Counted from the first letter of the stretch, positions 600-41,229 are shown. The stretch: 64,000 nucleotides of DNA from a virus (IMGVR_UViG_3300028591_003737:1-64000), one strand, 5' to 3'. Made by a program: numbers and translations. Notes: generated by a model not told the origin, from the letters alone.

Positions 600-604
600 A
601 TAAA

Positions 605-792: not shown

Positions 793-919
793 ATGGTCAA
801 GTACCCGGATTTCCACCAACTTTTTACAACCTTAATATAATATAGAAAAATTAACTAGTACTTTTTAAATATTATACTTAGTTCTCCTTCTGGTTTCGAA
901 ACCTGACAGAAGGTGTACT

Positions 920-996
920 TGGGGTGAGTTACCGGATTCGAACCGGTCCTCAGGGATTCACAGTCCCCACGACTCAACCGCTATCTTAAACCCACC
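920..996 (-). tRNA. tRNA-His(GTG), encoded G-1 and CCA
   Basis: GGGGA-CT GTG AA-TCCCT; C73. Confidence 0.88.
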
Positions 997-1002
997 ATGT
1001 AG

Positions 1003-1076
1003 GGTGCCTAGTCGGGATCGAACCGACGACATGCGGAACCACAATCCGCCGCTCTGCCAACTGAGCTATAGGCACC
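1003..1076 (-). tRNA. tRNA-His(GTG)
   Basis: GCGGA-TT GTG GT-TCCGC; G-1. Confidence 0.92.
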
Positions 1077-1083
1077 ATGTAAA

Positions 1084-1408
1084 AAACAGATTTTCTTAGT
1101 TAAGCGTATACTGACCATCTGTTAGGGTCTACCACGCATGGGTTCCTCTCCGTTTCGCAGCTTTTCCATGAGCTGTCGTAGCATGTACTATACTTCTACT
1201 ACGCTGTTCCAATTAGGTATAGATGGTAAATCAAAACAATCAACCAGTGCCCTTATTACTGCCTTACTCCCTGGAATATGAAGGTACGCCGACATTCAGT
1301 TTGATTTCTCATACGGTCTAGTTTGTTATGTCTCATTTCAACAATGATAGGGAGGATAACTTTCATTTGCAACCTATCTACCGCAACTGCTTCATATACT
1401 GATTGTTA
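1084..1408 (-). ncRNA. Putative structured ncRNA (~325 nt), unclassified
   Basis: ORF-free, GC-richer than coding DNA, inside tRNA operon. Confidence 0.35.
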
Positions 1409-1415
1409 TAAAAAA

Positions 1416-1740
1416 AATCAAGCTTTACTACATCAGTCACTTACATAACCTCGGCTTTCGGAGCATCAATCTACCATCTTTCGAAGGATTGACTCTACAC
1501 GAGGATTGCATTACCATTGGCGTATTTCACGTAGAAATTACCGGTTTTACTATCATAGAGGTGTTCTGCATCAATTGTAATTTATCACTAATGTCGTGTT
1601 TATATTTACAATTTCAGTTTCGTTGGACAACCCGACGCTTCGGAACGGTTTCATATTACATAGGCTACTGCGCACTCACCTATCCGATTACTCCACATCC
1701 TACTGGCAAGGTTCTTCTTAAAAAAGAACGAGGCTTGATT
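1416..1740 (-). ncRNA. Putative structured ncRNA (~325 nt), unclassified
   Basis: Closed by AATCAAGC/GCTTGATT terminal helix; GC-richer; abuts a tRNA. Confidence 0.45.
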
Positions 1741-1745
1741 TATTG

Positions 1746-1820
1746 TAGCGGTGGGGAGATTCGAACTCCCACTGAATAGGTTTTGAATCTACTGCCATCT
1801 TCCAGTTGGGCTACACCGCC
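1746..1820 (-). tRNA. tRNA-Leu(CAA), short variable loop
   Basis: GTAGA-TT CAA AA-CCTAT; 5-nt variable loop TCAGT. Confidence 0.82.
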
Positions 1821-1825
1821 ATATT

Positions 1826-1965
1826 AATCTGAAGAACATTTAGAAGAGGTAAGTGGACTAACCACCATGTTTGTCATTTCTGACTGATAGGCTCGAACTA
1901 TCTAAAATCTTATTTCCAGTAAAATTTATTAACCATGAAGTATCTCTTCAGATCACTATCAGATT
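1826..1965 (-). ncRNA. YrlA-like (Y RNA) circularly permuted tRNA mimic (E2)
   Basis: Ends AATCTGA/TCAGATT pair; TAGTGATCTGAAGAGATACTTC ... T arm GATAG-TTCGAGC-CTATC, capped acceptor GTCA-GAAA-TGAC, D-like arm, CTCTTCTAAATGTTCT. Confidence 0.7.
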
Positions 1966-1966
1966 G

Positions 1967-2055
1967 CGGTGAGTAGAGGTGTCGAACCTCATCCGGGTCT
2001 TAACCGAACTAACTGATTTCCAATCAGCACCCATCTCCGTTTGGGATTGCTCACC
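1967..2055 (-). tRNA. tRNA-Ser(GGA)
   Basis: GCTGA-TT GGA AA-TCAGT; long variable arm. Confidence 0.85.
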
Positions 2056-2061
2056 AATTAA

Positions 2062-2153
2062 TGGCGGAGAGCAGAGGTGTCGAACCTCATCCGGTTATTA
2101 GCCGAACAACACGTTTAGCAGACGGTTACCATCTCCGTTTGGTTTTACTCTCC
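2062..2153 (-). tRNA. tRNA-Ser(GCT), divergent, CCA encoded
   Basis: CGT-CT GCT AA-ACG; long variable arm; body similar to upstream Ser(GGA). Confidence 0.8.
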
Positions 2154-2160
2154 AATTATG

Positions 2161-2247
2161 CGGTGGGGGCGAGATTCGAACTCGCGGACCCCTTACGGGG
2201 TCGGCAGTTTAGCAAACTGCTGGTTTAAGCCACTCACCCACCCCACC
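2161..2247 (-). tRNA. tRNA-Ser(GCT)
   Basis: GCAGT-TT GCT AA-ACTGC; long variable arm. Confidence 0.93.
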
Positions 2248-2615
2248 ATTAAAAAACAAGCTTTCACACCTTCAGTACTTGTTATGAAAGGTTTTGATTT
2301 CGTCACCTTAACTGGTCATCCGAGGCCGCTTGGTCATACCCGATGACTGTTGAGCATTGCTTCACCAAGTTCTAACTCAACGAGCTATAAATGAGGTCGT
2401 TGTTCCAGTTACTTTTTGTCGGCTTTAAGTAACAAACCATTATCTCCACAATTACGGTATTGTGGTCAACCAAGGCATCCATTCTTCGATTGGTGCCATA
2501 CACAGAGCTTAAAATAAATCTTTGTTATTCAAGTTCCGAAACTCAATCTGTCTTCAGATGAGCAAAAATACCAATGGCTAGTCTCCTCAGACTGTAACCG
2601 CTTTTGTTTTTTAAT
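2248..2615 (-). ncRNA. Putative structured ncRNA (~370 nt), unclassified
   Basis: 12-bp perfect terminal helix ATTAAAAAACAA/TTGTTTTTTAAT; internal hairpins; no ORF. Confidence 0.45.
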
Positions 2616-2805
2616 CTTCTTATTACATCCTATAAGAAGGACAGATTCGTACAACTGTCAGGTTAACTGTGATACTAACCCAATCACACGGTCGTATTTT
2701 ATAAATAAGTTTTTATATCTACCATGTTGCAGGTACTTAAATATATTTTAAGTTTTAGTTATTAAGAGAACTTATAAACTCATTAATAAACCTTGCCAAG
2801 GTCTG

Positions 2806-2879
2806 TAGCGTGACCTGGAGTCGAACCAGGGACCTTGGGGGTATGAATCCCACGCTCTAGCCAACTGAGCTATCACGCC
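2806..2879 (-). tRNA. tRNA-Met(CAT), elongator type (or Ile2)
   Basis: TGGGA-TT CAT AC-CCCCA. Confidence 0.88.
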
Positions 2880-2886
2880 ATTTTTA

Positions 2887-3058
2887 ACTATTTACTTCTG
2901 AAGGTTTTTATTAAACTATGTATTCCTCTTTTCTTGCTTATCCGGACCCGACCGTTGGAACCCACCTCAGATTATTGAACTACGAACATTCAAATTTTGC
3001 TACTGTGATCTTTCAGAATTAAATCATAACTAGTTATAGTCGCCGATATATAAATAGT
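2887..3058 (-). ncRNA. Putative structured ncRNA
   Basis: Terminal ACTATTTA/TAAATAGT and inner TTCTGAA/TTCAGAA pairing. Confidence 0.35.
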
Positions 3059-3208
3059 ATAATTAGAGCATTATAGAATTTGCAACTTCTATAAATTGTT
3101 ACTTGATATGCTATTCATTTATAACACCACTAAGCACCTGCTGAGGAGGACCGCTTATCAATATCTAGAATTTGATTTTATAACGCCGTCACCTTCAAGT
3201 ATCTCTTG

Positions 3209-3283
3209 TCGGAGCACGTGGATTCGAACCACGGACCCTCTGCTTGTAAGGCAGATGCTCTGAACCAACTGAGCTATGCTCCG
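3209..3283 (-). tRNA. tRNA-Val(TAC)
   Basis: TCTGC-CT TAC AA-GCAGA. Confidence 0.93.
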
Positions 3284-3412
3284 ATTAAAATAATAAGGAT
3301 AACCACTTAACCTTATTTCTTCAATATAACTCCCGTTAAAGAAATATTAAATTAAACCCTTTTAAGGTAGCACCTATCTAGAGAGGTAACGGTCCTCTTG
3401 GGTTGGTTTTTG

Positions 3413-3489
3413 TGGGGATAGTCGGAATCGAACCAACGAAATGCCCATCTTGTAAGGATGGCGGCTTAAACCTACTGGCCTATATCCCC
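3413..3489 (-). tRNA. tRNA-Val(TAC), divergent copy
   Basis: CCATC-CT TAC AA-GATGG. Confidence 0.85.
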
Positions 3490-3496
3490 AAATTAT

Positions 3497-3607
3497 ACCG
3501 AAAGAACATTTAGTAGAGCATTGTGTCACCATTGACGTTTTTCCTGAGCTTTGGTAGAAAAAATAAGAATCGAACTTATGAAGTATCTCTACAGACCACT
3601 ATTCGGT
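3497..3607 (-). ncRNA. YrlA-like (Y RNA) circularly permuted tRNA mimic (E3)
   Basis: Ends ACCGAA/TTCGGT; TAGTGGTCTGTAGAGATACTTC, T arm ATAAG-TTCGATT-CTTAT, looped acceptor TTTTTCT..AGGAAAAA, D arm GTCA-ATGG-TGAC, CTCTACTAAATGTTCT. Confidence 0.72.
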
Positions 3608-3608
3608 G

Positions 3609-3682
3609 TCGGTCTGGGAAGACTTGAACTTCCGACCCCTACATTATCAGTGTAGTGCTCTAACCAACTGAGCTACAGACCG
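3609..3682 (-). tRNA. tRNA-Ile(GAT)
   Basis: CTACA-CT GAT AA-TGTAG. Confidence 0.93.
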
Positions 3683-3897
3683 AAATATTGCCCAATCTTA
3701 AACATGTCTGCACTGCGACCTAACAGGACTTTGTTAGTTTCTCCTCCAGTAATATCCCTCATGACTACTTTACGTATCCTATATTTGGAGTTTAATGATA
3801 CCATCCTACATTTACTCATATTACCTCTTGCGGTTCACACCCCAATGTTTCTCCAATCCATTGAGTTTATTCCGTGAGTTTTAAGATCTACAAGCTG

Positions 3898-3972
3898 TAC
3901 CCCTGAGGAGATTCGAACTCCTACTGAATGGATTCTAAGTCCATTGCCATCTTCCAGTTGGGCTACAGGGGC
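3898..3972 (-). tRNA. tRNA-Leu(TAG), short variable loop
   Basis: ATGGA-CT TAG AA-TCCAT; same D arm as Leu(CAA) at 1746. Confidence 0.85.
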
Positions 3973-4060
3973 ATATATAAGTTTTTGTATCATACCTTAC
4001 TATTGAGGTTGAATATTAAAATATTCATTTATACTTAGGATAACTTTAAACCTTCTTTTG

Positions 4061-4135
4061 TACTCCTGACGGGATTCGAACCCGTGTTTCCACCTTGAGA
4101 GGGTGACTACCTCGACCACTAGTATAGACAGGAGC
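4061..4135 (-). tRNA. tRNA-Glu(CTC)
   Basis: TCACC-CT CTC AA-GGTGG. Confidence 0.88.
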
Positions 4136-4142
4136 ATAATTT

Positions 4143-4266
4143 ACTAAGAATCTTGCAAGTAACTTACTTTAATCTCATTTGGATTCGAACCAAATCCCCT
4201 TCTAAAAGGATCCTCCCAAGTATGCATCGCCTTTTACACTATTTTGATTATTTCAGTATTCTTAGT
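4143..4266 (-). ncRNA. Degenerate tRNA-like element within a 9-bp outer helix
   Basis: T arm TTTGG-TTCGAAT-CCAAA and D-like arm, no canonical anticodon arm; ACTAAGAAT/ATTCTTAGT ends. Confidence 0.5.
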
Positions 4267-4269
4267 TTG

Positions 4270-4428
4270 TACCATTCCTTGGAATCGAACCAAGTTCCTC
4301 TGGGCTCTCTACCCAGCGATTTATGTGTCTTCAATACTTAATAACTAAATTATACCTACTTAACGCGTATTTCAATATAACTTGCTATCAGTTTATCGCT
4401 CAGGGTGACTCCAACCGTCCCGAATGGC
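4270..4428 (-). ncRNA. tRNA scaffold with ~85-nt insertion in the anticodon arm
   Basis: Acceptor GCCATTC/GAATGGT, D arm GAC..GTC, T arm CTTGG-TTCGATT-CCAAG; AGCGAT/ATCGCT closes insert. Confidence 0.65.
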
Positions 4429-4496
4429 GAAAGCTTCCAAGAGTTTCGAACCTACAAGAAAACCCCAACTAATTGTATGTGTTCGATTAGTTGTTG

Positions 4497-4569
4497 TGGA
4501 CCCTACGAGAATCGAACTCGTACTTGAAGCTTGCAAAGCTACTGTGCTAACCGTTATCACTAAGGGCCC
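4497..4569 (-). tRNA. tRNA-Ala(TGC)
   Basis: TT TGC AA loop; G3:U70. Confidence 0.9.
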
Positions 4570-4575
4570 AGAAAA

Positions 4576-4667
4576 ATTTGAAGTGCCGGCCAGCTTACCA
4601 ACTAGGATAGACACTGTAACCCGTTATCTATCTACATCTACTCATCGATGCAATGGTAACTTCAAAT
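4576..4667 (-). ncRNA. Putative small structured RNA
   Basis: 9-bp terminal helix ATTTGAAGT/ACTTCAAAT. Confidence 0.35.
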
Positions 4668-4674
4668 AATTTAA

Positions 4675-4845
4675 AATAGCACAGGCAACAGTCTCTTCCA
4701 TGCAGTTTCCAAAACATTTAAACCCTGATTAACAGACTGGTTCTGACACACAATTAGATGACTTAAATCTCCGGAGAGTCAATTCTAAAAGGTACATAGA
4801 CTTCAGCGCTGTCTACCTGTTGTAGTTGACGTCATAACTGCTATT
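4675..4845 (-). ncRNA. Putative structured RNA (~170 nt)
   Basis: AATAGCA/TGCTATT and ACAGG/CCTGT pairing. Confidence 0.35.
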
Positions 4846-4849
4846 ATTG

Positions 4850-4923
4850 TGGACCCGAAGGGAATCGAACCCTCCACGATCTCCTTGCAAGGGAGTTCCG
4901 CCAGCCTTGGTACATGCAAGCCC
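4850..4923 (-). tRNA. tRNA-Ala(TGC), divergent copy
   Basis: CTCC-CT TGC AA-GGAG; G3:U70. Confidence 0.82.
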
Positions 4924-4933
4924 ATAAATATTT

Positions 4934-5072
4934 GCTAGCAAAGAGGGACTCGAACCCCCGACCCGCGGTTTGGACTAAAATTTGAAGTAACTCTAAACTT
5001 CAACACAGTTAAGGTAATAATCGTCAGAGCATTAAATTTAACTGCTGCTCTACCTACTGAGCTATTTGCTAG
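4934..5072 (-). ncRNA. tRNA with Y-RNA-like stem inserted in the anticodon loop (E4)
   Basis: Canonical acceptor, D arm GCTC..GAGC and T arm; ~65-nt insert containing CTCTGAC..GTGTTGAAGTTTAGAGTTACTTC. Confidence 0.72.
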
Positions 5073-5074
5073 TG

Positions 5075-5169
5075 CGGAGATAGCCGGACTCGAACCGACA
5101 CACCGGAGTGGTTACCGATTACTCGTAGTTTTCAGGACTACTGCCTTACGCAATTAGGCTTATATCTCC
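5075..5169 (-). tRNA. tRNA-Ser(TGA), C33 variant
   Basis: GTAGT-CC TGA AA-ACTAC; long variable arm. Confidence 0.8.
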
Positions 5170-5177
5170 ATATTGTG

Positions 5178-5265
5178 CGGAGGGTGAGGGATTCGAACCC
5201 CCGGTGCGCTCAACACGCACAGCGGTTTTCAAGACCGTCGCTATCGACCACTCAGCCAACCCTCC
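5178..5265 (-). tRNA. tRNA-Ser(TGA)
   Basis: ACGGT-CT TGA AA-ACCGC. Confidence 0.93.
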
Positions 5266-5268
5266 ATA

Positions 5269-5706
5269 TTATTTTGCTGAATATTGATGAATTACTCCAT
5301 GACAATTAGAACATAAAATTTGTAAATTATCTAAAGAATTATCAAAATGATTATGATTTTTATGATGTAATTCAAGTGGAATTGGTTTACCTTGCCATTC
5401 ACTTAATCCACAACATTCACATTTTCTTTCTTTTAAACCATCTCTAAATAATTTATTTCTTAATTTAGGAGCATCTAAATAAATATTATTTTCAATATAA
5501 TACATTGCTGGTTTATAATCATTACCAGGAATACCTTTACCACTAGGATTTAATTTAATTTCAATATTTAATATTTTTAAATTATCTCTTAATGTACTAT
5601 ATTTCATATTAAAATGTTTAGCAATTGCTGATAATGGAATATGTTTATCCATTAAATCAACAATTTCATCTAAATGATTTTTTACAACATTTAATTTTGA
5701 ATTCAT
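5269..5706 (-). CDS. HNH endonuclease (free-standing, homing type)
   Basis: CECC...LELHHKNHNHFDNSLDNLQILCSNCH; N-terminal HTH-like segment. Confidence 0.88.
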   Translation of the reverse strand: MNSKLNVVKNHLDEIVDLMDKHIPLSAIAKHFNMKYSTLRDNLKILNIEIKLNPSGKGIPGNDYKPAMYYIENNIYLDAPKLRNKLFRDGLKERKCECCGLSEWQGKPIPLELHHKNHNHFDNSLDNLQILCSNCHGVIHQYSAK

Positions 5707-5725
5707 ATTATATATAATATTTATG

Positions 5726-5808
5726 TCGGCGTGGAGGGAGTCGAACCCTCACGAGCGTAGCTCACATGTTCCTTAGACATGCCTGTATACCAGTTCCAGC
5801 ACACGCCG
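5726..5808 (-). tRNA. tRNA-Leu(AAG)
   Basis: CATGT-CT AAG GA-ACATG; long variable arm. Confidence 0.88.
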
Positions 5809-5820
5809 ATAATTATTTAG

Positions 5821-5894
5821 TCGGGATAGCGCGACTCGAACGCGCGACCTCTAGTTCCCAAAACTAGCGTTCTAACCAACTGAACTACATCCCG
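5821..5894 (-). tRNA. tRNA-Pro(TGG)
   Basis: CTAGT-TT TGG GA-ACTAG. Confidence 0.93.
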
Positions 5895-6083
5895 ATAAGT
5901 TGCATATATTAATATAGTAAAACTATACTAATATATGCATTATAATTGTTGTTTTCCTTTTACCAGTCACGGCTATTCAGAAAACTAATAATATGCATTT
6001 ACCAGACTTGTCAAAGACCTATGTTCTTGTAAATATATAATAGATATTTTCAGAATATCTTTTCATATATTTTAGAACTTTTG

Positions 6084-6155
6084 CAGGAGTTACAGGATTC
6101 GAACCCATACCTGTGGTTTTGGAGACCAATATGCTGCCATTAACACCAAACTCCT
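6084..6155 (-). tRNA. tRNA-Trp(CCA)
   Basis: TGGT-CT CCA AA-ACCA; G73. Confidence 0.9.
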
Positions 6156-6163
6156 ATTATTTG

Positions 6164-6238
6164 TCGAGAGGCCCAGATTCGAACTGGGATTTCTACTGTA
6201 TCAGAGTAGGATCCTAAAACCATTTAGATGATCTCTCG
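6164..6238 (-). tRNA. tRNA-Ile(GAT), divergent copy
   Basis: CTACT-CT GAT AC-AGTAG. Confidence 0.78.
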
Positions 6239-6309
6239 ATAGCCTGAGAATCGGAAATTTATATACTCAATATATAAATGCCTAAATTATAAAAATTTTT
6301 CTCTCAGTG

Positions 6310-6385
6310 TGCCCACGATCCGAATCGAACGGATGCCTCCAGATCTTCAGTCTGACGCGCTAACTACCACCTACGCAACATGGGC
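6310..6385 (-). tRNA. tRNA-Phe(GAA), divergent copy
   Basis: TCAGA-CT GAA GA-TCTGG. Confidence 0.85.
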
Positions 6386-6396
6386 ATTATCGCTTG

Positions 6397-6472
6397 TCTA
6401 GTAGATAGGACTCGAACCTACATTATCCGCATTCCAAATGCGGCAACCTAAAGCCAATTGGTTTACTACTAG
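6397..6472 (-). tRNA. tRNA-Pro(TGG), A37 variant
   Basis: CCGCA-TT TGG AA-TGCGG. Confidence 0.82.
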
Positions 6473-6491
6473 ATATATTTCAATGATCTAG

Positions 6492-6563
6492 AGTCGGGTA
6501 CCGGATTCGAACCGATGTTGACAGTTTTGCAGACTGTTGCCTAAGCCCCTCGGCCAACCCGAC
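6492..6563 (-). tRNA. tRNA-Cys(GCA)
   Basis: ACAGT-CT GCA AA-ACTGT; U73. Confidence 0.92.
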
Positions 6564-6570
6564 TTATTTG

Positions 6571-6643
6571 AGTCTCTGACAGGATTCGAACCTGCATATC
6601 TGATTTTGCGGACCAGTACCTCAATCCATTCGGCCACAGAGAC
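6571..6643 (-). tRNA. tRNA-Cys(GCA), C33 variant
   Basis: CTGGT-CC GCA AA-ATCAG; U73. Confidence 0.85.
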
Positions 6644-6654
6644 ATTTTATTATG

Positions 6655-6727
6655 CGGGCCTGACCGGAATCGAACCAGTGACACGAGGATCTTCAGTCCC
6701 CTGCTCTACCAACTGAGCTACAGGCCC
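6655..6727 (-). tRNA. tRNA-Phe(GAA)
   Basis: GGGGA-CT GAA GA-TCCTC. Confidence 0.93.
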
Positions 6728-6729
6728 AT

Positions 6730-6741
6730 TTTCAAAGAACT
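6730..6741 (-). promoter_or_regulatory. boxA-like antitermination site
   Basis: AGTTCTTTGAAA on the minus strand, identical to 6821-6832. Confidence 0.55.
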
Positions 6742-6745
6742 TTTG

Positions 6746-6819
6746 TACCCCACCCGAGAGTCGAACTCGGAAAACCTGGTCTCTTAAGCCAGTACGTATG
6801 CCAATTCCGTCAGCGGGGC
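6746..6819 (-). tRNA. tRNA-Leu (AAG, ambiguous loop), short variable loop
   Basis: CTGGC-TT AAG AG-ACCAG with C.A mismatch; Leu-type D arm. Confidence 0.7.
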
Positions 6820-18264: not shown

Positions 18265-18633
18265 CTAATCTATTAAATCAAAAAGATTTAAATCTATTCC
18301 CCAAGTATCACTATTAAAATGTATAGTATTTAATTTAGGTTTATTATAATTATTTTTTAAATCATGATTAACTTGAAATAACCAATTTATATAATTACAA
18401 ATATCATAACATTCTTTTCTTTTTGCTGCATTATGTATCTGAATTTCTATAGAAGCATTTTCTTTATTATATTTAATCCACATAATGTGTTTAGAATGTT
18501 GATACATTGAACGAATTAATTTATCTCCTAATATTTTTACTAAATTATCTGCTTTTTCATCAAATGGGATATCTGTTTTAGTATCTTTATTAAGATGTAA
18601 TTTTTCTATTATATAATTATTAAAATCTTTCAT
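18265..18633 (-). CDS. Leader-tagged protein (putative capsid internal protein)
   Basis: [17 protein letters not shown]. Confidence 0.7.
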   Translation of the reverse strand: MKDFNNYIIEKLHLNKDTKTDIPFDEKADNLVKILGDKLIRSMYQHSKHIMWIKYNKENASIEIQIHNAAKRKECYDICNYINWLFQVNHDLKNNYNKPKLNTIHFNSDTWGIDLNLFDLID

Positions 18634-18634
18634 G

Positions 18635-18964
18635 TTATTTTAAGTTTTTATTAAAGAAAGGATTATCTAAAAGACATTCTATAATATGTTCTGTTTCTTT
18701 ACATATATTAGTAAATTGTCCTACATCTTTAGCTTCTAAATTAAACCATTCATTTAATTCATTTTTTATTTTAAATCTAGAATGTAACATACTTTCCATT
18801 CTAAATGGATATTTTGTTTTATATATAGAAGATATAAAAAGTTCAGTAGAATTTCCAGTTTGAAGTTTTTTTAATCTATTACTTTTTAAATCTCTAGTAA
18901 CACCAATTTTAAATGTTGTATTTGATGGATCACAAATTAAATATACATATCCTTCAGTTTCCAT
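18635..18964 (-). CDS. GIY-YIG / T5orf172 family protein
   Basis: GYVYLI..FKIGVT..RLKKLQTGN..E..LH..EWF. Confidence 0.85.
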   Translation of the reverse strand: METEGYVYLICDPSNTTFKIGVTRDLKSNRLKKLQTGNSTELFISSIYKTKYPFRMESMLHSRFKIKNELNEWFNLEAKDVGQFTNICKETEHIIECLLDNPFFNKNLK

Positions 18965-19006
18965 AAAAATAAAAGTTCATTATATATAGATAATAAACTT
19001 TATTTT

Positions 19007-19384
19007 TTAATCCATGTGATCATAATGAACTGGTTTACCATCCCAAAGACTAGCATGATGATCATCAATTTTCACATCACCCCATTTATTAATTCTACAA
19101 GTAATTTCTTGAGCATCTTTTTCAAACTTATCTTCTACAGGTACACATTCACCTTGCCAACCATTTCCAGAAACATTCTTCTTTTCAAGTTCTTTAACTT
19201 TAAATGATTTACCAGTTGATTTAATAATCTTATAGAAATCAACAAGAATCATATTATATCCACCAATAGTTACGAGAATATCATCAACATCCCATGTTGT
19301 TGGATCATCTACTTTCTTTTCAATAGTCTTTGTATCTTTATTAAGATGAAGTTTTTCAATTATAAATTTATCTATCTGTTTCAT
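19007..19384 (-). CDS. Leader-tagged protein
   Basis: [17 protein letters not shown]. Confidence 0.7.
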   Translation of the reverse strand: MKQIDKFIIEKLHLNKDTKTIEKKVDDPTTWDVDDILVTIGGYNMILVDFYKIIKSTGKSFKVKELEKKNVSGNGWQGECVPVEDKFEKDAQEITCRINKWGDVKIDDHHASLWDGKPVHYDHMD

Positions 19385-19385
19385 A

Positions 19386-19742
19386 TTATTCTAAATCATC
19401 ATTTTCTATTTTTTCAAGATCTTCAGGTGTTATAGTACCATCTTTATAATCATCTTCAAATTGTTCTATATCTTGATAAGATGAAGGAATTCTATATAAT
19501 TCATATGAATAATTATAAGTATCTATCCATTTTTTATAATTATCTTTTATATAATCAATAGGTATTATAAAACCATTTGATTCATTATCAGAAGTAATTA
19601 ATGCATCAATAAAATCTTTTTTAAAAAAGTCATATGCATCACCAAAAGGAATTATAAAAAGAAATTTTTCATCAAATTCTTTTGTTTTTATATTCTTATC
19701 AAGTTTAAGTTTTTCTAATATATAATTATTTAATTGTATCAT
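19386..19742 (-). CDS. Leader-tagged protein
   Basis: MIQLNNYILE-KLKLDKN. Confidence 0.7.
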   Translation of the reverse strand: MIQLNNYILEKLKLDKNIKTKEFDEKFLFIIPFGDAYDFFKKDFIDALITSDNESNGFIIPIDYIKDNYKKWIDTYNYSYELYRIPSSYQDIEQFEDDYKDGTITPEDLEKIENDDLE

Positions 19743-20728
19743 GCTTCTAACTTTTTAAATTTTCTATACCAAGGATCTTTATCTAAATTCTTCCACTCTA
19801 CAGAAGAATGTTTATCTGTCTGATATTTTTTAAATATATCATTAGGTACCCAATTTGGTTTCCATTTATAATTTATACAATCTTCCTCTTCTTTAGTTAA
19901 TATAATATCATATTTATCTTTGTTATTATTTTGAGTAAGTGTATATATTCCATTTATACAATTAGCACCTCTAGCAAAATCATAATATTTTCCATCTTTT
20001 TTAAGAACATAATGATTACCACACATTTCGTCATCATCATTAATAAGTTCTTGTGCTTGTTTAGAAAAATCAACTTTTATTTCTACAGGACAATCAAATA
20101 TTGTATAGAATTTTTCCCAAATTGATTTAACTAATTTTGTACATTGACCAAACTTTTGAGCATCAATACATTCTTCCCATGTAGATACATGATATCGATT
20201 AATTAAAAATTTCTTTACTTTATCTATATCACTGTCTGATAATGATTCTTTAATTAAATTATTTTTTGATGGATCTACAACAAGATTTAATTTAGTCATA
20301 GTATCTCTATTTATAAGAGTCTTTGTAGATTTCTTTCTTTCATCAGTTACTGCTATAAATGGTTCATCAAGTTTTCTACCACCAATTTTTATATAATCTA
20401 TAATAATTATTGGTCTATGATGAACAACATTACCTACAGTAGGACTTGCTTCTCCTTTCTTATCAAATGTATATTCTTTATCACCAATAGTAATAGTTAC
20501 TTTATCACCATCAATATTCATTTTATCAACACCAAGAGTAGGAACAACTCCACCATTACCTGTATCTATAGTAGCAGTAAATTCATATTTATCACCTTTA
20601 ATACCTATAGTTACCATCTCCTTAAATCCAACTCTTTTTTTGAAATTTCTTTGAATGAAATCTCTAAGTGGTTTAAGAAGCTTATTATCAAATAATCCTT
20701 CTACTATATATTCATTTAATGTTCTCAT
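19739..20728 (-). CDS. Leader-tagged retropepsin-like (RimK-associated) aspartic protease fused to unknown domain
   Basis: MRTLNEYIVE; ATIDTGNGG, HRPII, DER..K.LINRD..KLNLVVDPSK. Confidence 0.7.
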   Translation of the reverse strand: MRTLNEYIVEGLFDNKLLKPLRDFIQRNFKKRVGFKEMVTIGIKGDKYEFTATIDTGNGGVVPTLGVDKMNIDGDKVTITIGDKEYTFDKKGEASPTVGNVVHHRPIIIIDYIKIGGRKLDEPFIAVTDERKKSTKTLINRDTMTKLNLVVDPSKNNLIKESLSDSDIDKVKKFLINRYHVSTWEECIDAQKFGQCTKLVKSIWEKFYTIFDCPVEIKVDFSKQAQELINDDDEMCGNHYVLKKDGKYYDFARGANCINGIYTLTQNNNKDKYDIILTKEEEDCINYKWKPNWVPNDIFKKYQTDKHSSVEWKNLDKDPWYRKFKKLEA

Positions 20729-21152
20729 CTTCACTTGGATTACCTATTATATATATTCTTTGATTATTAGTAAATTTATCATCAGCATATGAAAAATAAT
20801 TATCTTTAAATCCTAATCCTGCAGTATTTCCTATTGGACGCCAATTAGAAATAACCTTTTTATATATTTTTCTTAAAAATTTTGTTGGTTCAGAATCAAT
20901 ATCATAAAAATATTTTACTTCAAATTTATTATTTACTTTTTTAGAAATATTTTTATAATCAGATAGTTCAACATATATTAATAAATCATAAATATTATTT
21001 TCTTTAACCCATTTATCAATATAATTTTTAACAACATCAGGATATTTAGGTTTAAGTATATTTAATAATTCAGATACAACATCTATATTTTCAGTATTAA
21101 TATCTTTATTAAGATGTAATTTCTCTATTATATATGTATTAATATTTATCAT
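20712..21152 (-). CDS. Leader-tagged protein
   Basis: [17 protein letters not shown]. Confidence 0.7.
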   Translation of the reverse strand: MININTYIIEKLHLNKDINTENIDVVSELLNILKPKYPDVVKNYIDKWVKENNIYDLLIYVELSDYKNISKKVNNKFEVKYFYDIDSEPTKFLRKIYKKVISNWRPIGNTAGLGFKDNYFSYADDKFTNNQRIYIIGNPSEDENIK

Positions 21153-21176
21153 TTATTAAGTATTTTTTAATAAGTT

Positions 21177-21668
21177 TTATAAATTTTCTTCAATCATATT
21201 TATATATGAATTATAATCTGTAACACTATTTTTTGATTTTAAATATTGTATTGTATATTCATTATCAAATATAAATGTATCATTTTTATCAAAATAATTT
21301 AATAATTTGTCTTTATCTTTATCTGAATTATTATAATTTTTAAATAATTTTTTTATAAGTTCATATCCAATATATATTGGTAGAAATATTGAACTATTAT
21401 TTTTCAAATTAGATTTCCATTCAATAAAGTTATTACTGTTAATAAATATATCTTTCTTTATTTGCTCATAATCTTTAACAAAGGTAATTTGATTTTTAGA
21501 TATATCTTTAATTTTACATATTGGATGTACATAAATATACGTTCCACCCATATGTTCTAATGAAATAAGAATACATTTATCATTAGGAGAAAAATTATAA
21601 TAATCATTAGTTTTAATATCTTTATTAAGATGAAGTTTTTCTGTTATATATGTATTTAAATTATTCAT
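21177..21668 (-). CDS. Leader-tagged protein
   Basis: [17 protein letters not shown] (internal ATG). Confidence 0.7.
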
Positions 21669-22680
21669 AATCTTCATCTGATTTATTTGAAAGTTTTTCT
21701 TTTACTTGAGATTCAATTTCTTCTGCCCATTCTGAATTATCTTCAAAGAATTGTATAAGTTTATCTCTTCCTTGACAGATATTTTCATCATTATATTTAA
21801 ACCATGATCCTGCTTTATGAATAATATCCATTTCAATAGCTAAATCAATTACTTCAGTTCCACGGCAAATACCTTTACCATATTCAATAACAAATTCTGC
21901 TTTTCTAAATGGAGGAGCACATTTATTCTTAACAACTTTAACTCTTGTCATATTTCCTGTTGCATCATCACCATCTTTAAGTTGTGTTGTTCTTCTTACA
22001 TCAAGACGCATAGATGCATAGAATTTAAGAGCATTACCTCCAGTTGTAGTCTCTGGATTGCCAAAAAGTACGCCTATTTTATCTCTGAGCTGATTAATAA
22101 ATATAACACATGTATTTGTTTTGGAAACAATAGAAGTTATCTTACGGAGCGCCTGAGACATTAATCTTGCTTGAAGACCAATTTTATTATCTCCCATTGT
22201 TCCTTCAATTTCAGCTTTTGGAGTAAGAGCTGCTACTGAGTCAATAACAACAACTGCCATACTTCCAGATGAAATAAGTGTTTCAGCAATATCAAGAGCT
22301 TCTTCACCACATGATGGTTGAGAAACATAAAGTTTACTCATATCTACACCAAGAGCTTTAGCATATGTTCTATCAAATGCATGTTCAGCATCTATCATTG
22401 CACACATTTCTCCAAGTTTCTGTGCTTCAGCGATAGCATGTATTGCAAGAGTTGTTTTACCAGAAGATTCTGGACCATAAATTTCTACTATTCTTCCTCT
22501 TGGATAACCACCTATACCAAGAGCATAATCAAGAGTAAGACTACCTGAAGGAATAACATCAATATCAAGTTCAGGTGCTTCATCAAGACGCATTACACTT
22601 CCTTTACCAAAATCTTTTTCAATTTTCTTTAGAGCTTCTTGTAAAGCTGCTAATTTATCTGTATTTTCTATTTTACTCAT
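21661..22680 (-). CDS. recA: Recombinase RecA
   Basis: [43 protein letters not shown]. Confidence 0.97.
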
Positions 22681-22684
22681 AATA

Positions 22685-23140
22685 TTATATTGGATCTACC
22701 AAATTATATTTCACATCACATTTACCTTGATAAACGTCCATAGAATAGAAAGTAATTGGTTTATCTAAAAATGATACTTCAAATGTACAATCATACATTC
22801 TACCTTGTGAATCATATTTTTGGTATAATTCTATTTCTTCATCAATATTTCTTCTTAGAATATCTTTTACTCTCATAAAATCAGCTGCTGATATATCACT
22901 ACACCACAATTGTTTATCTTTTGTATTATAATATATTTTTAAGAATGTTGAATTATCTATAAATTCTTCAATATTATCTTTTTTAGCATCTTTAAATTCA
23001 ATACCAGTATACCATTTAAAGAAATCTTTAATTGTTAATCCTTCAAATTTATACTCAAAATCTTTTTCATCTATTTGAGATGATTTAGTATTTTTATTTA
23101 AATGAAGTTTTTCAATAATATATTTACTTAAATTATTCAT
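22685..23140 (-). CDS. Leader-tagged protein
   Basis: [17 protein letters not shown]. Confidence 0.7.
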
Positions 23141-23727
23141 TGTTCAAATAGTTCTTTAGTTATATTTACTAATTTATTCCATGCTTGACCAGTAAATCTA
23201 GATTTATTAATTGCCTCATTAAAATCATCTTTATAATATTTAAATTCTTTAATACCATCTAAAACTTTTGTTAAAACATCATCAGTTAATTCATATACAG
23301 GATGATTACCATATAAACCTCCGCCTTTATATTTTTCTGATTTATATTCTAATTCATACTTATAAGTTGAAGCTACACTAAATGATTTTTTACCATTACT
23401 ATAAAATAATCTAACATATATTAAAATTTTATCAGATGGTAAATTACCCATATTATTTTCAGCAGGTTTAGTAATATCAAATTTTAAATCAATATGAGAA
23501 GTATTATTTGGATTTTTAAAATAAAGATAATAATTACAATATTTATATCCATTATCATTAATTGATGAAGAAATTTGTTTTTCAAATTCATCACTATTAT
23601 CTTTATATCCTATATCTGAAAATGCTTCATCTAATTCTTTAATTATATCATCAAAACTTTCTTCTTGTTTATCAGTATCTTTATTTAAATGTAATTTTTC
23701 AATAATATATTTATTTATGTTTCTCAT
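23137..23727 (-). CDS. Leader-tagged protein
   Basis: [17 protein letters not shown]. Confidence 0.7.
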   Translation of the reverse strand: MRNINKYIIEKLHLNKDTDKQEESFDDIIKELDEAFSDIGYKDNSDEFEKQISSSINDNGYKYCNYYLYFKNPNNTSHIDLKFDITKPAENNMGNLPSDKILIYVRLFYSNGKKSFSVASTYKYELEYKSEKYKGGGLYGNHPVYELTDDVLTKVLDGIKEFKYYKDDFNEAINKSRFTGQAWNKLVNITKELFEQ

Positions 23728-24085
23728 TTTCTAAATCTAATTGATGTTTTTTCTTAAGTAAATCTGTAACTTCATCTCCATAATCAGCACCTAATTTATT
23801 AAATTCTTTAGTTTGTTTATCTAATGGTAAACCTTTATAACATAAATTAATTATTTTATCTATATTCCTTTCATTTGATATTTTTATTACTAAATGAAAA
23901 GTACCATTTTTATTAAATTGTTTACCATCTCCATTTCTTATTCCATCTGCTGCATCTTCAGCAGTATCATAAAGAATATAATTTGCTCCATCATTTTTCC
24001 AACTATATACAACCATATACTTAACAATTTCTGTATCTTTGTTAAGTTTTAATTTTTCTAATATATAATTATCCAATTGTTTCAT
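23711..24085 (-). CDS. Leader-tagged protein (first of array)
   Basis: MKQLDNYILE-KLKLNKD. Confidence 0.7.
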   Translation of the reverse strand: MKQLDNYILEKLKLNKDTEIVKYMVVYSWKNDGANYILYDTAEDAADGIRNGDGKQFNKNGTFHLVIKISNERNIDKIINLCYKGLPLDKQTKEFNKLGADYGDEVTDLLKKKHQLDLENEKHK

Positions 24086-24087
24086 AT

Positions 24088-24098
24088 ATATAAAAATA
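24088..24098 (-). promoter_or_regulatory. Putative late promoter motif TATTTTTATAT
   Basis: Immediately upstream of the leader-gene array, after a terminator. Confidence 0.55.
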
Positions 24099-24100
24099 AA

Positions 24101-24127
24101 AAATCTGAAGTATAATACTTCAGATTT
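24101..24127. terminator. Intrinsic terminator
   Basis: AAATCTGAAGTAT-A-ATACTTCAGATTT. Confidence 0.65.
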
Positions 24128-26473: not shown

Positions 26474-26561
26474 AATGTTTGTTTTTAATTACATTAATAA
26501 TATAGAACATAATCTGAAAAATTCAATTATTTTTATATATAATATATATATATTAAATTTT

Positions 26562-28202
26562 ATGAAAGACTTAAAACATATACTTCTTTTTGAAGCTAAT
26601 AAAAAATCACCATCTGGAATTGGTAAAATAAAGAATACATCAAGAGAAGAAGATGTAGAATTTATTGCTGGAGATGTTTATGATTTATCAGGAGATAATA
26701 GATATACTGATAAATTTACATATTATAGTGGTAAAGGTGATGGTTATATAATGGATAAAGATGGTAATTACTATGATGTAGTTACTTCATCTTGGTCAAG
26801 TGATGCTGGTAGAATTGCTGGTGGTTCTATGAATTATCAAGTAACAATTAAGAAAGCTAATGGTACTGATGATGCAATATTTAATGGTTATACAGCAATA
26901 TTTAGTAGTCCTCATTATTCAACAATTATTGAAGATATTAAAGCTGGTTATTATCTTGAAGATTATATTGCTAAGAACTGGGGTGCTTTATCAGATAGTA
27001 AAAAATTCGAAGAATTAAAAAAGAAAGGAGATCCTAATGCTAAATCATACCATACTGAAAAAGAAGAAAATAAAGCAAGAAAGGAAGAAGAATTTGCAGA
27101 AAGATATATAATACTTCCTAAATTTATAGGTTTTACTATTAAAGATGGTAAATTAGAATTTGAAAATCTTAAACCTAAAAAAGAAACAGAAGGTAAACCA
27201 GAAAAAACAAAATGGGATTTAAGACAAAAAGATTTTGATTCAGAAGAAGCATATAAAGCAGCAGAAGAAACATTACAAAAACAATGGGATGAATATAATG
27301 CTAATCTTAAAGAAATTAATGATAAATTAACTGATGTTGTAAATAAGATTGCAACTAAATTAACAGAAGAATATTTTAAGGCTCCTATATCAAAACTTAC
27401 AGGATTACATTTTACAATTGATCCTAAATTAAATAATCCTCATTCATGGGAAGAAACTTCTGCAATAGCAATTGATACTAAGAAAAATAAAGTTGTTACT
27501 CTTAATAGAAAATCTAAGAAAGGAATTGGACAATATACACCTTGGAAAGATATTAATGAAAATCCAGAATTTGTACTTGGACCATCAGCTACAGTAATAA
27601 AGAGTAAAGCTTCTGATTATTTAGTAGATTTATTTAAGAGAGCATCTGATGCTTGGCAGAAGATTAATGGTAGAACAAAGACTAAGTATATTGAAGATAA
27701 CTGGGAAGAAATTTGGAAATCTGGTAGAGGATATTATTCTTGGAATCCTGATAAGTATACTAAGAGTGAAGCAAGAAAGATGGCTGAAGAAAAATTCTAT
27801 AAATGGTTAAATGAATTTAATTGGGATTCTTCACAAGGAACTATTACATTCAGTACTGATTTTATAAAAGATTATATTCAGGGTGAACTTCCACAGTCAG
27901 AAAATGAAAAAGAAGAAACATCAAAACAAACAACTCAAGAAGAGATTAAGACAGATGTATCTAAAGCAAGAAAAGTTCAAGAACCTAAAATGGATGCATG
28001 GCATAATGGAACAAGAAAACAGAATGTAAAGAATTGTTCAGATGCTAAACTTAAACTTAATTATGAAATTTGTAAAGATAAGGGATATGATAAAGAAGCA
28101 CAGATTCTTAAAGATGAAGCAGAATCAAGAGGACTTACTTTAGAAAATCTTAATCTTGAAGATATGAAATTCTCAATAATTGAACAATTATATTTAAATT
28201 AA
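26562..28202 (+). CDS. Leader-like-tagged hypothetical protein
   Basis: Start MKDLKHILLFE after TATTTTTATAT (26528-26538). Confidence 0.65.
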   Translation: MKDLKHILLFEANKKSPSGIGKIKNTSREEDVEFIAGDVYDLSGDNRYTDKFTYYSGKGDGYIMDKDGNYYDVVTSSWSSDAGRIAGGSMNYQVTIKKANGTDDAIFNGYTAIFSSPHYSTIIEDIKAGYYLEDYIAKNWGALSDSKKFEELKKKGDPNAKSYHTEKEENKARKEEEFAERYIILPKFIGFTIKDGKLEFENLKPKKETEGKPEKTKWDLRQKDFDSEEAYKAAEETLQKQWDEYNANLKEINDKLTDVVNKIATKLTEEYFKAPISKLTGLHFTIDPKLNNPHSWEETSAIAIDTKKNKVVTLNRKSKKGIGQYTPWKDINENPEFVLGPSATVIKSKASDYLVDLFKRASDAWQKINGRTKTKYIEDNWEEIWKSGRGYYSWNPDKYTKSEARKMAEEKFYKWLNEFNWDSSQGTITFSTDFIKDYIQGELPQSENEKEETSKQTTQEEIKTDVSKARKVQEPKMDAWHNGTRKQNVKNCSDAKLKLNYEICKDKGYDKEAQILKDEAESRGLTLENLNLEDMKFSIIEQLYLN

Positions 28203-28203
28203 A

Positions 28204-28881
28204 ATGAAGCAAATTAATACATATATAATAGAGAAATTACATTTAAATAAGGATATTACTGATAAAACAGAATATGAGTATCATCCTGAAACTAAAGAAG
28301 AACTCTTTGAATTATTAAAGAAATTATTAAAAGAAAGAGGACCAAATGCAAATTTAAATGATATTGATGTATCTAATATTGATGATATGTCATGTTTATT
28401 TTCAAGTATAGAAATGAATTCATCTGATATGTTAAAAGTTTTTTCAAATTATTCATCTAATATATTACCAGTTGGAAATTATTCTAATCAATTTAATGGT
28501 AATTTTTTAAAAACAAAAGATGATTATTTAATACATAATATAGATATATCAAAATGGGATGTAAGTAATGTTAAAAACATGTATGGTATGTTTGCTACAT
28601 GTAGATATTTTAATTCTGATTTATCTAAATGGCATGTAGATAATGTTGTTAATATGTCAAATATGTTTTATGATAATTGGAAATTTAATTCAGATATTTC
28701 TAATTGGGATGTATCTAGTTGTGAACAAATGTATTTTATGTTTAATGGATGCAAAAAATTTAATCAAAATTTAAATTCTTGGACATTAAATAAAAAATGT
28801 AAAGGACAAAATTATTATAGAATGTTTAAAAGATGTGATTCTTTAAAAGTAATTCCAGATTGGTATAAAGGAAAACAATAA
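28204..28881 (+). CDS. Leader-tagged DUF285/BspA-like repeat protein
   Basis: [17 protein letters not shown]; repeats DISKWDVSNVKNMYGMF..FNSDLSKW. Confidence 0.85.
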   Translation: MKQINTYIIEKLHLNKDITDKTEYEYHPETKEELFELLKKLLKERGPNANLNDIDVSNIDDMSCLFSSIEMNSSDMLKVFSNYSSNILPVGNYSNQFNGNFLKTKDDYLIHNIDISKWDVSNVKNMYGMFATCRYFNSDLSKWHVDNVVNMSNMFYDNWKFNSDISNWDVSSCEQMYFMFNGCKKFNQNLNSWTLNKKCKGQNYYRMFKRCDSLKVIPDWYKGKQ

Positions 28882-40233: not shown

Positions 40234-41229
40234 TTACTTGTTAATTCCAAGCATAATACTCTGTCCATTTCCAAGCATATAGGTAGGAAGCTCACCATTC
40301 CACTTGTTAATCCACTCAAGTTCAACAATTCGAGGGTTAGTAGAAATTGACTGTCCCTTAATCTTAAGTGCCTGTGCTTCAGCTTCAGCCTGAGTAATAT
40401 CAATATCCTTCTGAATCTGTGCCTGCTTCAAAAGCTCATTCTTCTGCTTAGTTACCTCAATAAGAGTAAGTGCCTTCTGTTCCTCAAGTTTCTTCTGGTT
40501 AATAGACTGCTCATATTCCTGATTGTAATAAACCTCACGAATATCAATCTGCTCAAGAATAAGATGATATGCCTCAATATCCTTCTTCATCTTATCATAA
40601 GTAAGCTGCTGAATTTCCTCACGCTTATTAGAATAAACTTCAATAGGAGTATACTTAGAAGCAGTAAGAGCAAGTGCAGACTTCAACTTAGCTTTAATAA
40701 CATTCTCTTCAAGCCAAAGGAATCGCCCATTATTAGAGTCATCAAGTTCAGATACATTGTCATAAATCCACCATGCATATTCCTCATCAATCTTCCAGGA
40801 TGCAGAGATAGCAAATCCCATCTTAATACCATCAACAGTAGGTGCCCAGATTGTAGTGCCCTGTACAGAACTCTTCTTAGCATCAGTCATACGAGTATCA
40901 TCTGTAGAAGCATCAGTACGAGAACCAAGATTAGCACAAGTATAAACCTGAACAGTCTTATCCATCTTTACAACCTTATACCAAGGCATTACCATATGCC
41001 AACCAGTCCTATAAGATTCATGTTTAACACCTCCAGGAGTAACTACAACACCACATTCCTGTGCAGGAATAACTGCGACAAAACTAAGACTGATAGCAAC
41101 TACAATACCAGCAATAAGAATCATAATATGGTTAGGAAGAACCTTCTCGTCCTGAACCTTGTTAGTAATAGCAGCAATAACCCAATAAAGGATTGCAAGA
41201 ATTGCAAGAATAGTAATAAATGTAAGCAT
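40234..41229 (-). CDS. SPFH/prohibitin (band 7) membrane protein
   Basis: Two N-terminal TM segments; GWHMVMPW; AEAEAQA..WNGELP. Confidence 0.88.
   Translation of the reverse strand: MLTFITILAILAILYWVIAAITNKVQDEKVLPNHIMILIAGIVVAISLSFVAVIPAQECGVVVTPGGVKHESYRTGWHMVMPWYKVVKMDKTVQVYTCANLGSRTDASTDDTRMTDAKKSSVQGTTIWAPTVDGIKMGFAISASWKIDEEYAWWIYDNVSELDDSNNGRFLWLEENVIKAKLKSALALTASKYTPIEVYSNKREEIQQLTYDKMKKDIEAYHLILEQIDIREVYYNQEYEQSINQKKLEEQKALTLIEVTKQKNELLKQAQIQKDIDITQAEAEAQALKIKGQSISTNPRIVELEWINKWNGELPTYMLGNGQSIMLGINK

Follow-up and report, generated by a model that had tools for sequence, protein, structure and literature searches.

We wondered why a run of otherwise unrelated phage genes should begin with one and the same short peptide. 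The genes lie between positions 18265 and 24085 of IMGVR_UViG_3300028591_003737:1-64000, a stretch of 64,000 nucleotides (nt) that is referred to here as the window and that represents the first 64 kb of a 169,614-bp IMG/VR viral record (CheckV completeness about 60%). They carry an N-terminal leader of the form M-x5-[YF]-I-x-E-K-L-[HK]-L-[ND]-K. An earlier note on this DNA had compared the first ten residues with the capsid targeting sequence of phage T4 and had proposed that the tagged proteins form a large, expandable library of head-packaged, injected effectors, with the KLHLNKD part of the leader docking on the core or on the ejection machinery. We argue below that the leader is probably a T4-type capsid targeting sequence which has been greatly expanded and is built of two modules, an explanation to which we give a probability of roughly 0.55.

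The record stems from an uncultured giant T4-type phage of the rumen and encodes a Gp23 capsid protein. Judged by this protein, the nearest GenBank entries include the uncultured phage LR756500 (36% identity). Identity is 34% to Sphingomonas (Sphingobacterium) phage PAU, 34-38% to the Tenacibaculum phages pT24, PTm1 and PTm5, 38% over 74% of the query to the Prevotella Lak megaphages and 33% to Chryseobacterium phage MA9V-2, and the phage thus belongs to one group with PAU, the Tenacibaculum phages and the Lak phages. Its G+C content is 20-30% outside a tRNA array at 283-6819 (26 genes).

A common leader on about one in seven genes

The full leader, in which E always stands exactly at position 10, is found on ten open reading frames (ORFs) of the window. 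Their starts are 18633, 19384, 19742, 21152, 21668, 23140, 23727 and 24085 on the minus strand and at 28204 and 56877 on the plus strand. At 20728 (-) the sequence reads MRTLNEYIVEGLFDNK, a diverged full leader, as one homolog elsewhere has ...YITEKLLDNK at the same place. Shorter leaders have E at residue 10 at 55433, 56488 and 63707 (-) and are off by one at 56057 (K10, E11) and 26562 (E11). All the starts named in the earlier note exist, and its total of 16 leader-bearing ORFs in the window holds, with two qualifications. The ORF listed from 21677 has its most likely start at 21668, which puts E at residue 10. At 26562 the Met lies inside a longer ORF; its use as a start is nevertheless supported by a promoter-like motif (TTATTTTTATA, see below) at 26527-26537 (+), 24 nt upstream of this ATG.

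We then extended the count to the 210 genes called in the whole 169.6-kb record. A genome-wide pattern search found M-x5-[YFW]-[ILMVT]-x-E at the N-terminus of 32 of the 210 genes, compared with 4 of 761 internal Met positions (Fisher p = 2e-18), and a DNA pattern for the MK subset of the leaders gave 19 matches versus 0 for a reversed control. Chance is excluded as the source of the leader. Tagged genes make up about 15% of all genes (about one in seven); 20 have the full form and 12 or so a short leader, and their bodies are 63 to 631 amino acids (aa) long. In the full leaders, position 4 is L, I or F, position 7 is Y or F, position 8 is I and position 10 is E, each in 20/20, and the short leaders have [ILM]-x-E.

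The bodies behind the leader are indeed unrelated at the level of BLASTP: no pair was found at E<1e-3 except two DUF285 proteins (28204 and genome 156804). Their predicted folds differ as well (all-beta, retropepsin-like and leucine-rich repeat), and neither a shared sequence nor a shared fold was found that would make them a single paralogous family.

Selection acts on the leader peptide. The earlier note had drawn this conclusion from synonymous variation in the leader DNA, and the codon counts bear it out. Among the 20 full leaders, Leu12 is encoded by TTA (7), CTT (12) or CTC (1) and Leu14 by CTT (10) or TTA (9), and at both positions TTA and CTT are used in the same proportion as in the genome at large, where they account for 0.49 and 0.43 of the Leu codons. 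The 60 nt 5' of the leader starts are mutually unrelated, many starts overlapping the preceding stop, and the leader is kept in orthologs whose bodies fall to 45-55% identity.

Residues 1-10 and the T4 capsid targeting sequence

We compared the leader with the head proteins of T4. Read from the T4 genome, ipII and ipIII start with MKTYQEFIAE and ipI with MKTFKEF...ITE, and a similar build is seen in gp24 (MAKINELLRE), gp22 (MLKEQLIAE) and gp21 (MNEPQLLIE). According to a review of the mutational work of Mullaney and Black, targeting of the internal protein IPIII rests mainly on residues 4 and 7 and its processing on residues 8 and 10 (PMC9026906). These experimentally defined positions are the conserved positions 4, 7, 8 and 10 of the leader. 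Capsid targeting sequences of the T4 type are propeptides of 10-19 residues that stand at the very start of otherwise unrelated proteins. The tagged genes have a stretch of this kind (32/210), the 4/7 targeting determinants and the 8/10 (L/I)-x-E processing determinants, two genes of the window having E at residue 11.

A protease of the gp21 family (Peptidase_S77), with its His and Ser motifs, is encoded as well. The domain starts a 581-aa protease-scaffold fusion (genome 144558-146303, minus strand), matches PF03420 with 36.5-38.7 bits, above the cut-off, and resembles T4 gp21 by BLASTP (E = 3e-7); GELEHP and SSRGAGS align with GELNHP and SSRGLGS of T4. The N-terminus MANKKCMVFE, followed by T, aligns with MNEPQLLIE of T4 gp21, which is likewise followed by T (the LIE-9 site). 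The C-terminal 400 residues are acidic and coiled-coil-like and contain a roughly fivefold repeated NWVCEEFAPEVQ unit, and the homolog in PTm1 bears the annotation 'prohead core scaffolding protein and protease'. We also noted that the fusion contains both an acidic linker and roughly five tandem NWVCEEFAPEVQ-like units, each with a hydrophobic-x-E site; these units could be a ladder of self-cleavage sites. The capsid protein has five [LI]xE sites, and all but one of them fall within its first 42 residues, as ...IHEIHE followed by S, which is what a cleaved propeptide would be expected to show.

In the mechanism that we propose, residues 1-10 (module 1, M-[KIN]-x-[LI]-x-x-[YF]-[IL]-x-E) would be the counterpart of the T4 capsid targeting sequence and would bind the protein to the scaffolding core during prohead assembly. 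The gp21-type serine protease (Peptidase_S77, fused to the scaffold) would remove module 1 after E10, and residues 11-17 (module 2, K-L-[HK]-[LI]-[ND]-K-[DN]) would become the mature N-terminus. Any ORF gaining the tag would become head cargo, which would account for the unrelated bodies and for the turnover of the arrays, including a variable slot in the head operon. Head targeting, cleavage after E10, late expression and delivery of the tagged proteins to the host are what we infer from this picture.

Tagged genes in the head operon and a motif shared with virion genes

Four full-leader genes (genome 149122 to 147407) are located directly upstream of the genes for the head core, the protease-scaffold and the capsid protein. 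They also precede genes that we take, by position and size, to be those of tail sheath and tube; these had no Pfam family match. The same slot, bounded by a conserved 350-aa gene on one side and the head-core gene on the other, holds one and four tagged genes in the relatives L034 and L035 (contigs of 197 kb and 356 kb), and the first slot gene in both is an ortholog of the retropepsin-like gene at 19739-20728 of the window. These data indicate that tagged genes belong to the head operon and move between arrays. The differing contents of the slot across related genomes support the idea of a large, expandable library.

A promoter-like motif, TTATTTTTATA, further connects the arrays with virion genes. 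The genome contains 18 copies of it. Fourteen are intergenic and precede a same-strand gene; 13 of these are within 3-30 nt of the start codon and one is 132 nt off. The motif precedes genes for giant structural-type proteins at 7253, 28925, 44692 and 165277 as well as four tagged genes (24085, 55433, 156195 and 159511), three of which, those at 24085, 55433 and 159511, head tagged arrays. The copy ahead of 26562 is a fifth one associated with a tagged gene and lies within a longer ORF. A variant, TTATTTTTAAT, precedes the capsid, protease, sheath and 2954-aa genes, and the motif TTATTTTTA[TA] is common to the capsid, protease, sheath, giant structural-type and first tagged-array genes in three genomes, with the same placements in both relatives. 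A different box, CTATATTA or [TA]CTATATT[AG], precedes ligase, topoisomerase-type and other enzyme genes by 22-28 nt. Because the arrays have the promoter-like motif in common with virion genes, and enzyme genes have a different box, the arrays would be expected to be transcribed together with the virion genes.

At the head of the main array the motif lies at 24089-24099 (-), and 3 nt separate it from the ATG with which the first array gene begins, an arrangement also found in L034 and L035. A terminator-like hairpin with a T-run (24098-24124, minus strand; stem TCTGAAGTA/TACTTCAGA) follows the FEN gene and merges into the motif, and the unit of hairpin and promoter-like motif is likewise present 5' of array heads in L034 and L035. 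At 55404-55414 (+) the motif again comes after a hairpin, 18 nt 5' of the tagged gene at 55433.

We made three further observations on these upstream regions. The promoter-like motif often follows a terminator hairpin. At several tagged-array heads the end of TTATTTTTATATAT is separated from the ATG by only 3-4 nt (window 24086-24099; genome 159512-159525 and 64459-64473; L034 9987-10000; L035 9989-10000 and 291-302), compared with a gap of 18-30 nt elsewhere, and these heads may give rise to leaderless mRNAs. The T4 late promoter TATAAATA was tried as a candidate and rejected: it is not clearly enriched (upstream of 13 genes in sense versus 7 in antisense) and is absent upstream of the capsid gene.

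The second module also occurs alone

A search for the second half of the leader alone revealed two genes that start with Met plus the motif, Met replacing K11 (M-L-[HK]-L-[ND]-K-[DN]). One (genome 111493-111924, minus strand) begins MLKLDKNLKV... and has an early-type box 25 nt upstream; 9 of its 10 orthologs keep M-L-[KH]-[LI]-[NDS]-[KR]-[ND] at a body identity of 37-73%. The other (genome 85784-86074, minus strand) begins MLHLNKNLVV..., has an in-frame stop two codons upstream and lies just downstream of genes that, by sequence reading, resemble topoisomerase II subunits. Its ortholog, 41% identical, begins MLHLNKDINV.

The leader therefore comes in three forms: module 1 alone (12 or so genes), module 2 alone (two families) and both (20 full leaders). 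It is composed of two modules whose boundary falls exactly at the predicted cleavage point between E10 and K11, and the fact that module 2, where it stands alone, starts at position 11 supports a real boundary there. The proposed docking of KLHLNKD on the core or ejection machinery is weakened, because two conserved families in early-gene settings, whose proteins need no packaging, carry the motif too. Module 2 thus looks like an independent element without a tie to packaging.

We speculated that the leader might be a double signal unmasked by the protease, an idea that we hold only tentatively. Module 1 would load the protein into the head and be cut off there, exposing (K)LHLNKD as a second address or timer in the newly infected cell, perhaps by docking to a phage or host factor or by acting as an N-terminal degradation signal. 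Proteins made early from the injected genome have module 2 right behind their start Met, so that a single N-terminal code would then govern the routing of injected and early-made proteins alike.

The bodies of the tagged proteins

Pfam and PHROG scans of the tagged bodies found nothing except DUF285 (28204) and PHROG 37844 (19007). Structure prediction, which the earlier note had named as a check, gave an all-beta body for the gene at 19007-19384 and a retropepsin-like domain for that at 19739-20728. AlphaFold, run for the 19007-19384 protein with 13 orthologs, gave the all-beta body with a predicted local distance difference test (pLDDT) score >90. Residues 1-20 had a pLDDT of about 50, the N-terminal extension not being packed on the confident body. 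Foldseek found no match to this body in the PDB at E<=0.001. The full leader is present in 12 of the 13 orthologs.

The 329-aa protein encoded at 19739-20728 has a conserved N-terminal half with a DTG motif and a C-terminal half that varies among homologs. Its model aligned best with the bacterial aspartic peptidase RloA2 (Z 7.6, 105 residues, root-mean-square deviation 3.1), followed by a DUF785 protein (Z 6.5) and then by about two dozen retropepsins and pepsins. An ESM Atlas search with this protein gave no usable match.

The arrays and their neighbours in the window

The main array is read on the minus strand. Its first gene (23711-24085) has the full leader MKQLDNYILEKLKLNKD and an orphan body (124 aa in all). 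It is followed by full-leader genes with orphan bodies at 23137-23727 (196 aa; BLASTP orthologs in L022 and L027 with about 91% body identity) and 22685-23140 (151 aa). A RecA/UvsX-like gene without a leader comes next (21661-22680); it is named from sequence reading, with a RecA Walker A motif in its translation. The related IMG/VR fragments that we examined for RecA synteny had no RecA on them. Beyond it lie tagged genes at 21177-21668 (full leader from ATG 21668) and 20712-21152 (full leader, 146 aa, orphan body). The gene at 19739-20728 then has the diverged full leader MRTLNEYIVEGLFDNK, the retropepsin-like DTG domain at residues ~30-155 and the variable C-terminal half. It is followed by full-leader genes at 19386-19742 (118 aa, acidic orphan body) and 19007-19384 (125 aa, the all-beta body with a flexible leader extension; PHROG 37844). 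The final array gene (18265-18633, 122 aa) again has a full leader. Between the last two, at 18635-18964, lies an untagged T5orf172/MUG113 (GIY-YIG-like) gene with its own AT-rich box upstream, which is probably a mobile endonuclease insertion.

On the plus strand, the gene at 26562-28202 encodes 546 aa with the degenerate leader MKDLKHILLFE (E at residue 11). The next one, at 28204-28881, combines a full leader with a DUF285 (BspA-like repeat) body and has its paralog at genome 156804-157445. A second array of four tagged genes occupies 55433-57233 (+), beginning with MRDLKEYMFE at 55433, MKTLKEYLLKE at 56057, MKSLKEYLLEE at 56488 and a full leader at 56877. Among the neighbours at 54593-55108, 57511-58185, 58893-59465 and 40234-41229 are a PNK-type 3' phosphatase, a VTC (polyphosphate polymerase-like) protein, a NADAR protein and an SPFH/Band 7 membrane protein.

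Distribution of the leader among relatives

We asked how widely the leader is spread. The exact string Y-I-x-E-K-L-H-L-N-K occurs in only about 10 of 2.9 million IMG/VR contigs, from six samples, with several copies each, and a profile of the full leader matched 20 times on one fragment of 74.6 kb and 12 times on another of 168 kb. As few contigs hold many copies, the expansion is a trait of a narrow clade. The same profile had no match in PTm1, PAU, MA9V-2 or LR756500 and one weak match in pT24, and the general leader pattern matched once in Lak-A1. Being nearly absent from these relatives, the full form is specific to the clade. In L034, at 2207-2554, we observed a shortened leader, MISLFEKLKLDND, with Glu at residue 6. 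Such natural variants, together with an ortholog of the 19007-19384 protein named P0013 (see below), could show which parts of the tag are needed.

Cultured relatives have leaders of their own. In PAU (JQ362498.1), 14 genes start with MKT[LI]xxL[YF]E versus 0 in a reversed control, among them gp152, annotated 'scaffolding', and gp154, annotated 'internal capsid protein'. We found no description of this set in the searchable literature. MA9V-2 has four genes starting with MK[NT]F..F[IV]NE, of which one lies directly upstream of the protease gene and a second some 4 kb ahead of that gene, and pT24 has three leader genes.

Weighing the explanations

The reading of residues 1-10 as a T4-type capsid targeting sequence thus draws on the positional match to T4, the gp21-type protease, the linkage to the head operon, the promoter-like motif and the leaders on head-module genes of relatives. 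A departure from T4 is seen at the residue after the predicted cut (P1'). This is Lys in 20/20 full leaders versus A, S or T at the T4 sites that we read (ipI, ipII, ipIII, gp21, gp22, gp23 and gp24, with the cut placed after each [LI]xE). The small residue that follows the cleaved Glu in T4 is therefore missing from the full leaders; in short leaders this place is mostly taken by S, G, A, E or N. Cleavage sites are described for gp23 (65-residue propeptide), gp24, the internal proteins (10-20 residues) and gp21 (LIE-9) (PMC5694885, PMC9026906), and gp22 is presumably cut at IAE-9. A small P1' residue is a regularity of these T4 sites and no proven requirement.

Besides the P1' Lys, several observations weigh against the two-module capsid-tag explanation. 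Since proteins in early-gene settings also begin with module 2, this half, at least, does not look like a packaging signal. The main array sits among recombination and replication genes, encloses the untagged RecA and T5orf172 genes and adjoins a 5'-3' exonuclease gene. The 'late' label of the promoter-like motif derives only from the kind of genes downstream of it. The tagged bodies are neutral to acidic, as is the rest of the proteome, versus the basic internal proteins of T4 (PMC9026906). The ortholog P0013 is without residues 9-13, including E10. AlphaFold gives the leader only a short helix, at residues 4-11 and with low confidence, and the hydrophobic moment of the leader is not above that of shuffles (median fraction 0.38); an amphipathic helix as a demonstrated property of the leader is therefore rejected. 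One codon is over-used at I8 (ATA in 17/20 versus 0.31 genome-wide) and one at K11 (AAA in 20/20 versus 0.72), and a minor constraint at the nucleotide level is possible.

Of the alternatives, the one that fares best accepts that the tag loads the prohead. The tagged proteins would, however, be parts for assembly or internal structure (core, inner body, DNA packing) that are not injected, and some of them, especially those with a full leader and P1' Lys, would stay uncleaved. The leader on the PAU scaffold, the four full-leader genes adjoining the head-core genes and the departure of P1' Lys from T4 sites are in line with this, and there is a precedent in T4, where an Asp at position 10 prevents processing without abolishing targeting (PMC9026906). 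The bodies argue against it, as they are diverse, turn over fast and include enzyme-like or binding domains (retropepsin-like, DUF285), unlike conserved structural parts. The stand-alone module 2 beginning exactly at position 11 favors a real boundary. We regard this alternative as improbable, though not negligible.

Less probable still, and in our view doubtful, is that the tag addresses another common partner in the infected cell, either the phage ClpX, for which it would be a degron for timed removal or a handle for remodelling, or some other hub protein. A complete phage ClpX (zinc finger plus AAA+) is encoded at 61831-63027 (-), and directly upstream of it lies a tagged gene with the short leader MKSITDYIYE (63030-63707, minus strand). 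ClpX reportedly reads N-terminal motifs (Flynn et al. 2003), and module 2 heads early-setting proteins that need no packaging. Iyer et al. described ClpX in related jumbo phages and suggested roles in translocating unfolded proteins or in virion assembly (PMC7824862). On the other hand, no ClpP was found in the record, which is about 60% complete, and host ClpP could serve. The positional match to T4, the [IL]xE, the slot in the head operon and the structural-gene promoter-like motif would all be left unexplained, and the PAU leader sits on annotated scaffold and internal capsid proteins.

That the leader is a by-product of gene shuffling without peptide function, whether as a conserved cassette for recombination or translation start or as a remnant of one diverged paralog family, is very unlikely: tagged genes do stand in tandem arrays, do move between loci and do over-use one codon each at I8 and K11, but the synonymous sites, where TTA and CTT alternate at Leu12 and Leu14 in spite of a two-base difference, speak against a relic, the differing predicted folds and lengths (63 to 631 aa) of the bodies speak against a single family, the upstream DNA is unrelated, DNA so short and varied is a poor substrate for homologous recombination, and the peptide outlasts the divergence of the bodies.

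Under the two-module capsid-tag explanation, the head of this phage probably takes up a protein cargo of unusual size and variability. Should the tag work as it does in T4, the clade would pack tens of fast-changing proteins, the largest set predicted so far for a T4-type tag, and the leader would become a simple sequence rule that lists candidate injected proteins (anti-defence, takeover) in uncultured rumen and gut phages. The idea can be tested directly in PAU, MA9V-2 and pT24, cultured relatives whose leader sets are smaller. The separable second motif would be a new N-terminal signal common to tagged genes and to genes in early-gene settings.

Comparison with known systems

Giant phages related to phiKZ have a gp21-related protease, and about 50 head proteins are known in SPN3US, several of them cleaved at x-x-E (PMC5694885). 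The head, inner-body and ejection proteins of phiKZ, 201phi2-1 and SPN3US resemble the tagged set in that many proteins are packed and in that N-termini are conserved among diverged paralogs (PMC5694885). In contrast to the leader described here, most of their propeptides run to 80-160 residues and the motif is (S/A/G)-x-E; a short universal tag is missing, and the phages belong to another lineage.

The leader set of PAU belongs to a T4-related jumbo relative with its own common leader on head-module genes. It differs in having E at residue 9, no KLHLNKD module and fewer copies; two PAU proteins have AKLNEA after the Glu.

In the variable internal-protein loci of T-even phages, the capsid targeting sequence is conserved and the mature parts are diverse (PMC3012670, PMC9026906). 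As in the present phage, the tag is kept while the cargo differs between relatives, which has been read as a toolbox for an arms race; here the head-operon slot holds one, four or four different tagged genes in three relatives. Unlike in the T-even phages, the scale is far larger and there are several arrays, one of which encloses RecA, and only retropepsin-like and DUF285 domains are recognised in the cargo.

The capsid targeting sequence of T4, carried by IPII and IPIII, with IPI and Alt, and removed by gp21, is a further parallel. In both systems, otherwise unrelated proteins begin with a tag of ten residues that has a Met-Lys start, a hydrophobic residue at position 4, an aromatic one at 7, Ile or Leu at 8 and Glu at 10, and a gp21-family protease and Gp23 are present in either case. 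The present system, known from its sequence alone, differs in having at least 32 tagged genes in 60% of a genome versus a handful in T4. Further differences are that 20 of the 32 tags continue into the second motif KLHLNKD, that P1' is Lys, that the bodies are not basic and that the protease is fused to the scaffold. We found no description of the expanded bipartite leader in the searchable literature. The T4 capsid targeting sequence and the variable T-even internal-protein loci are already known (PMC3012670, PMC9026906), and what is new here is the scale (15% of the genes), the composition of the leader from two parts, of which the second motif is separable, and the lineage-specific versions of the leader in T4-related jumbo phages that infect Bacteroidota.

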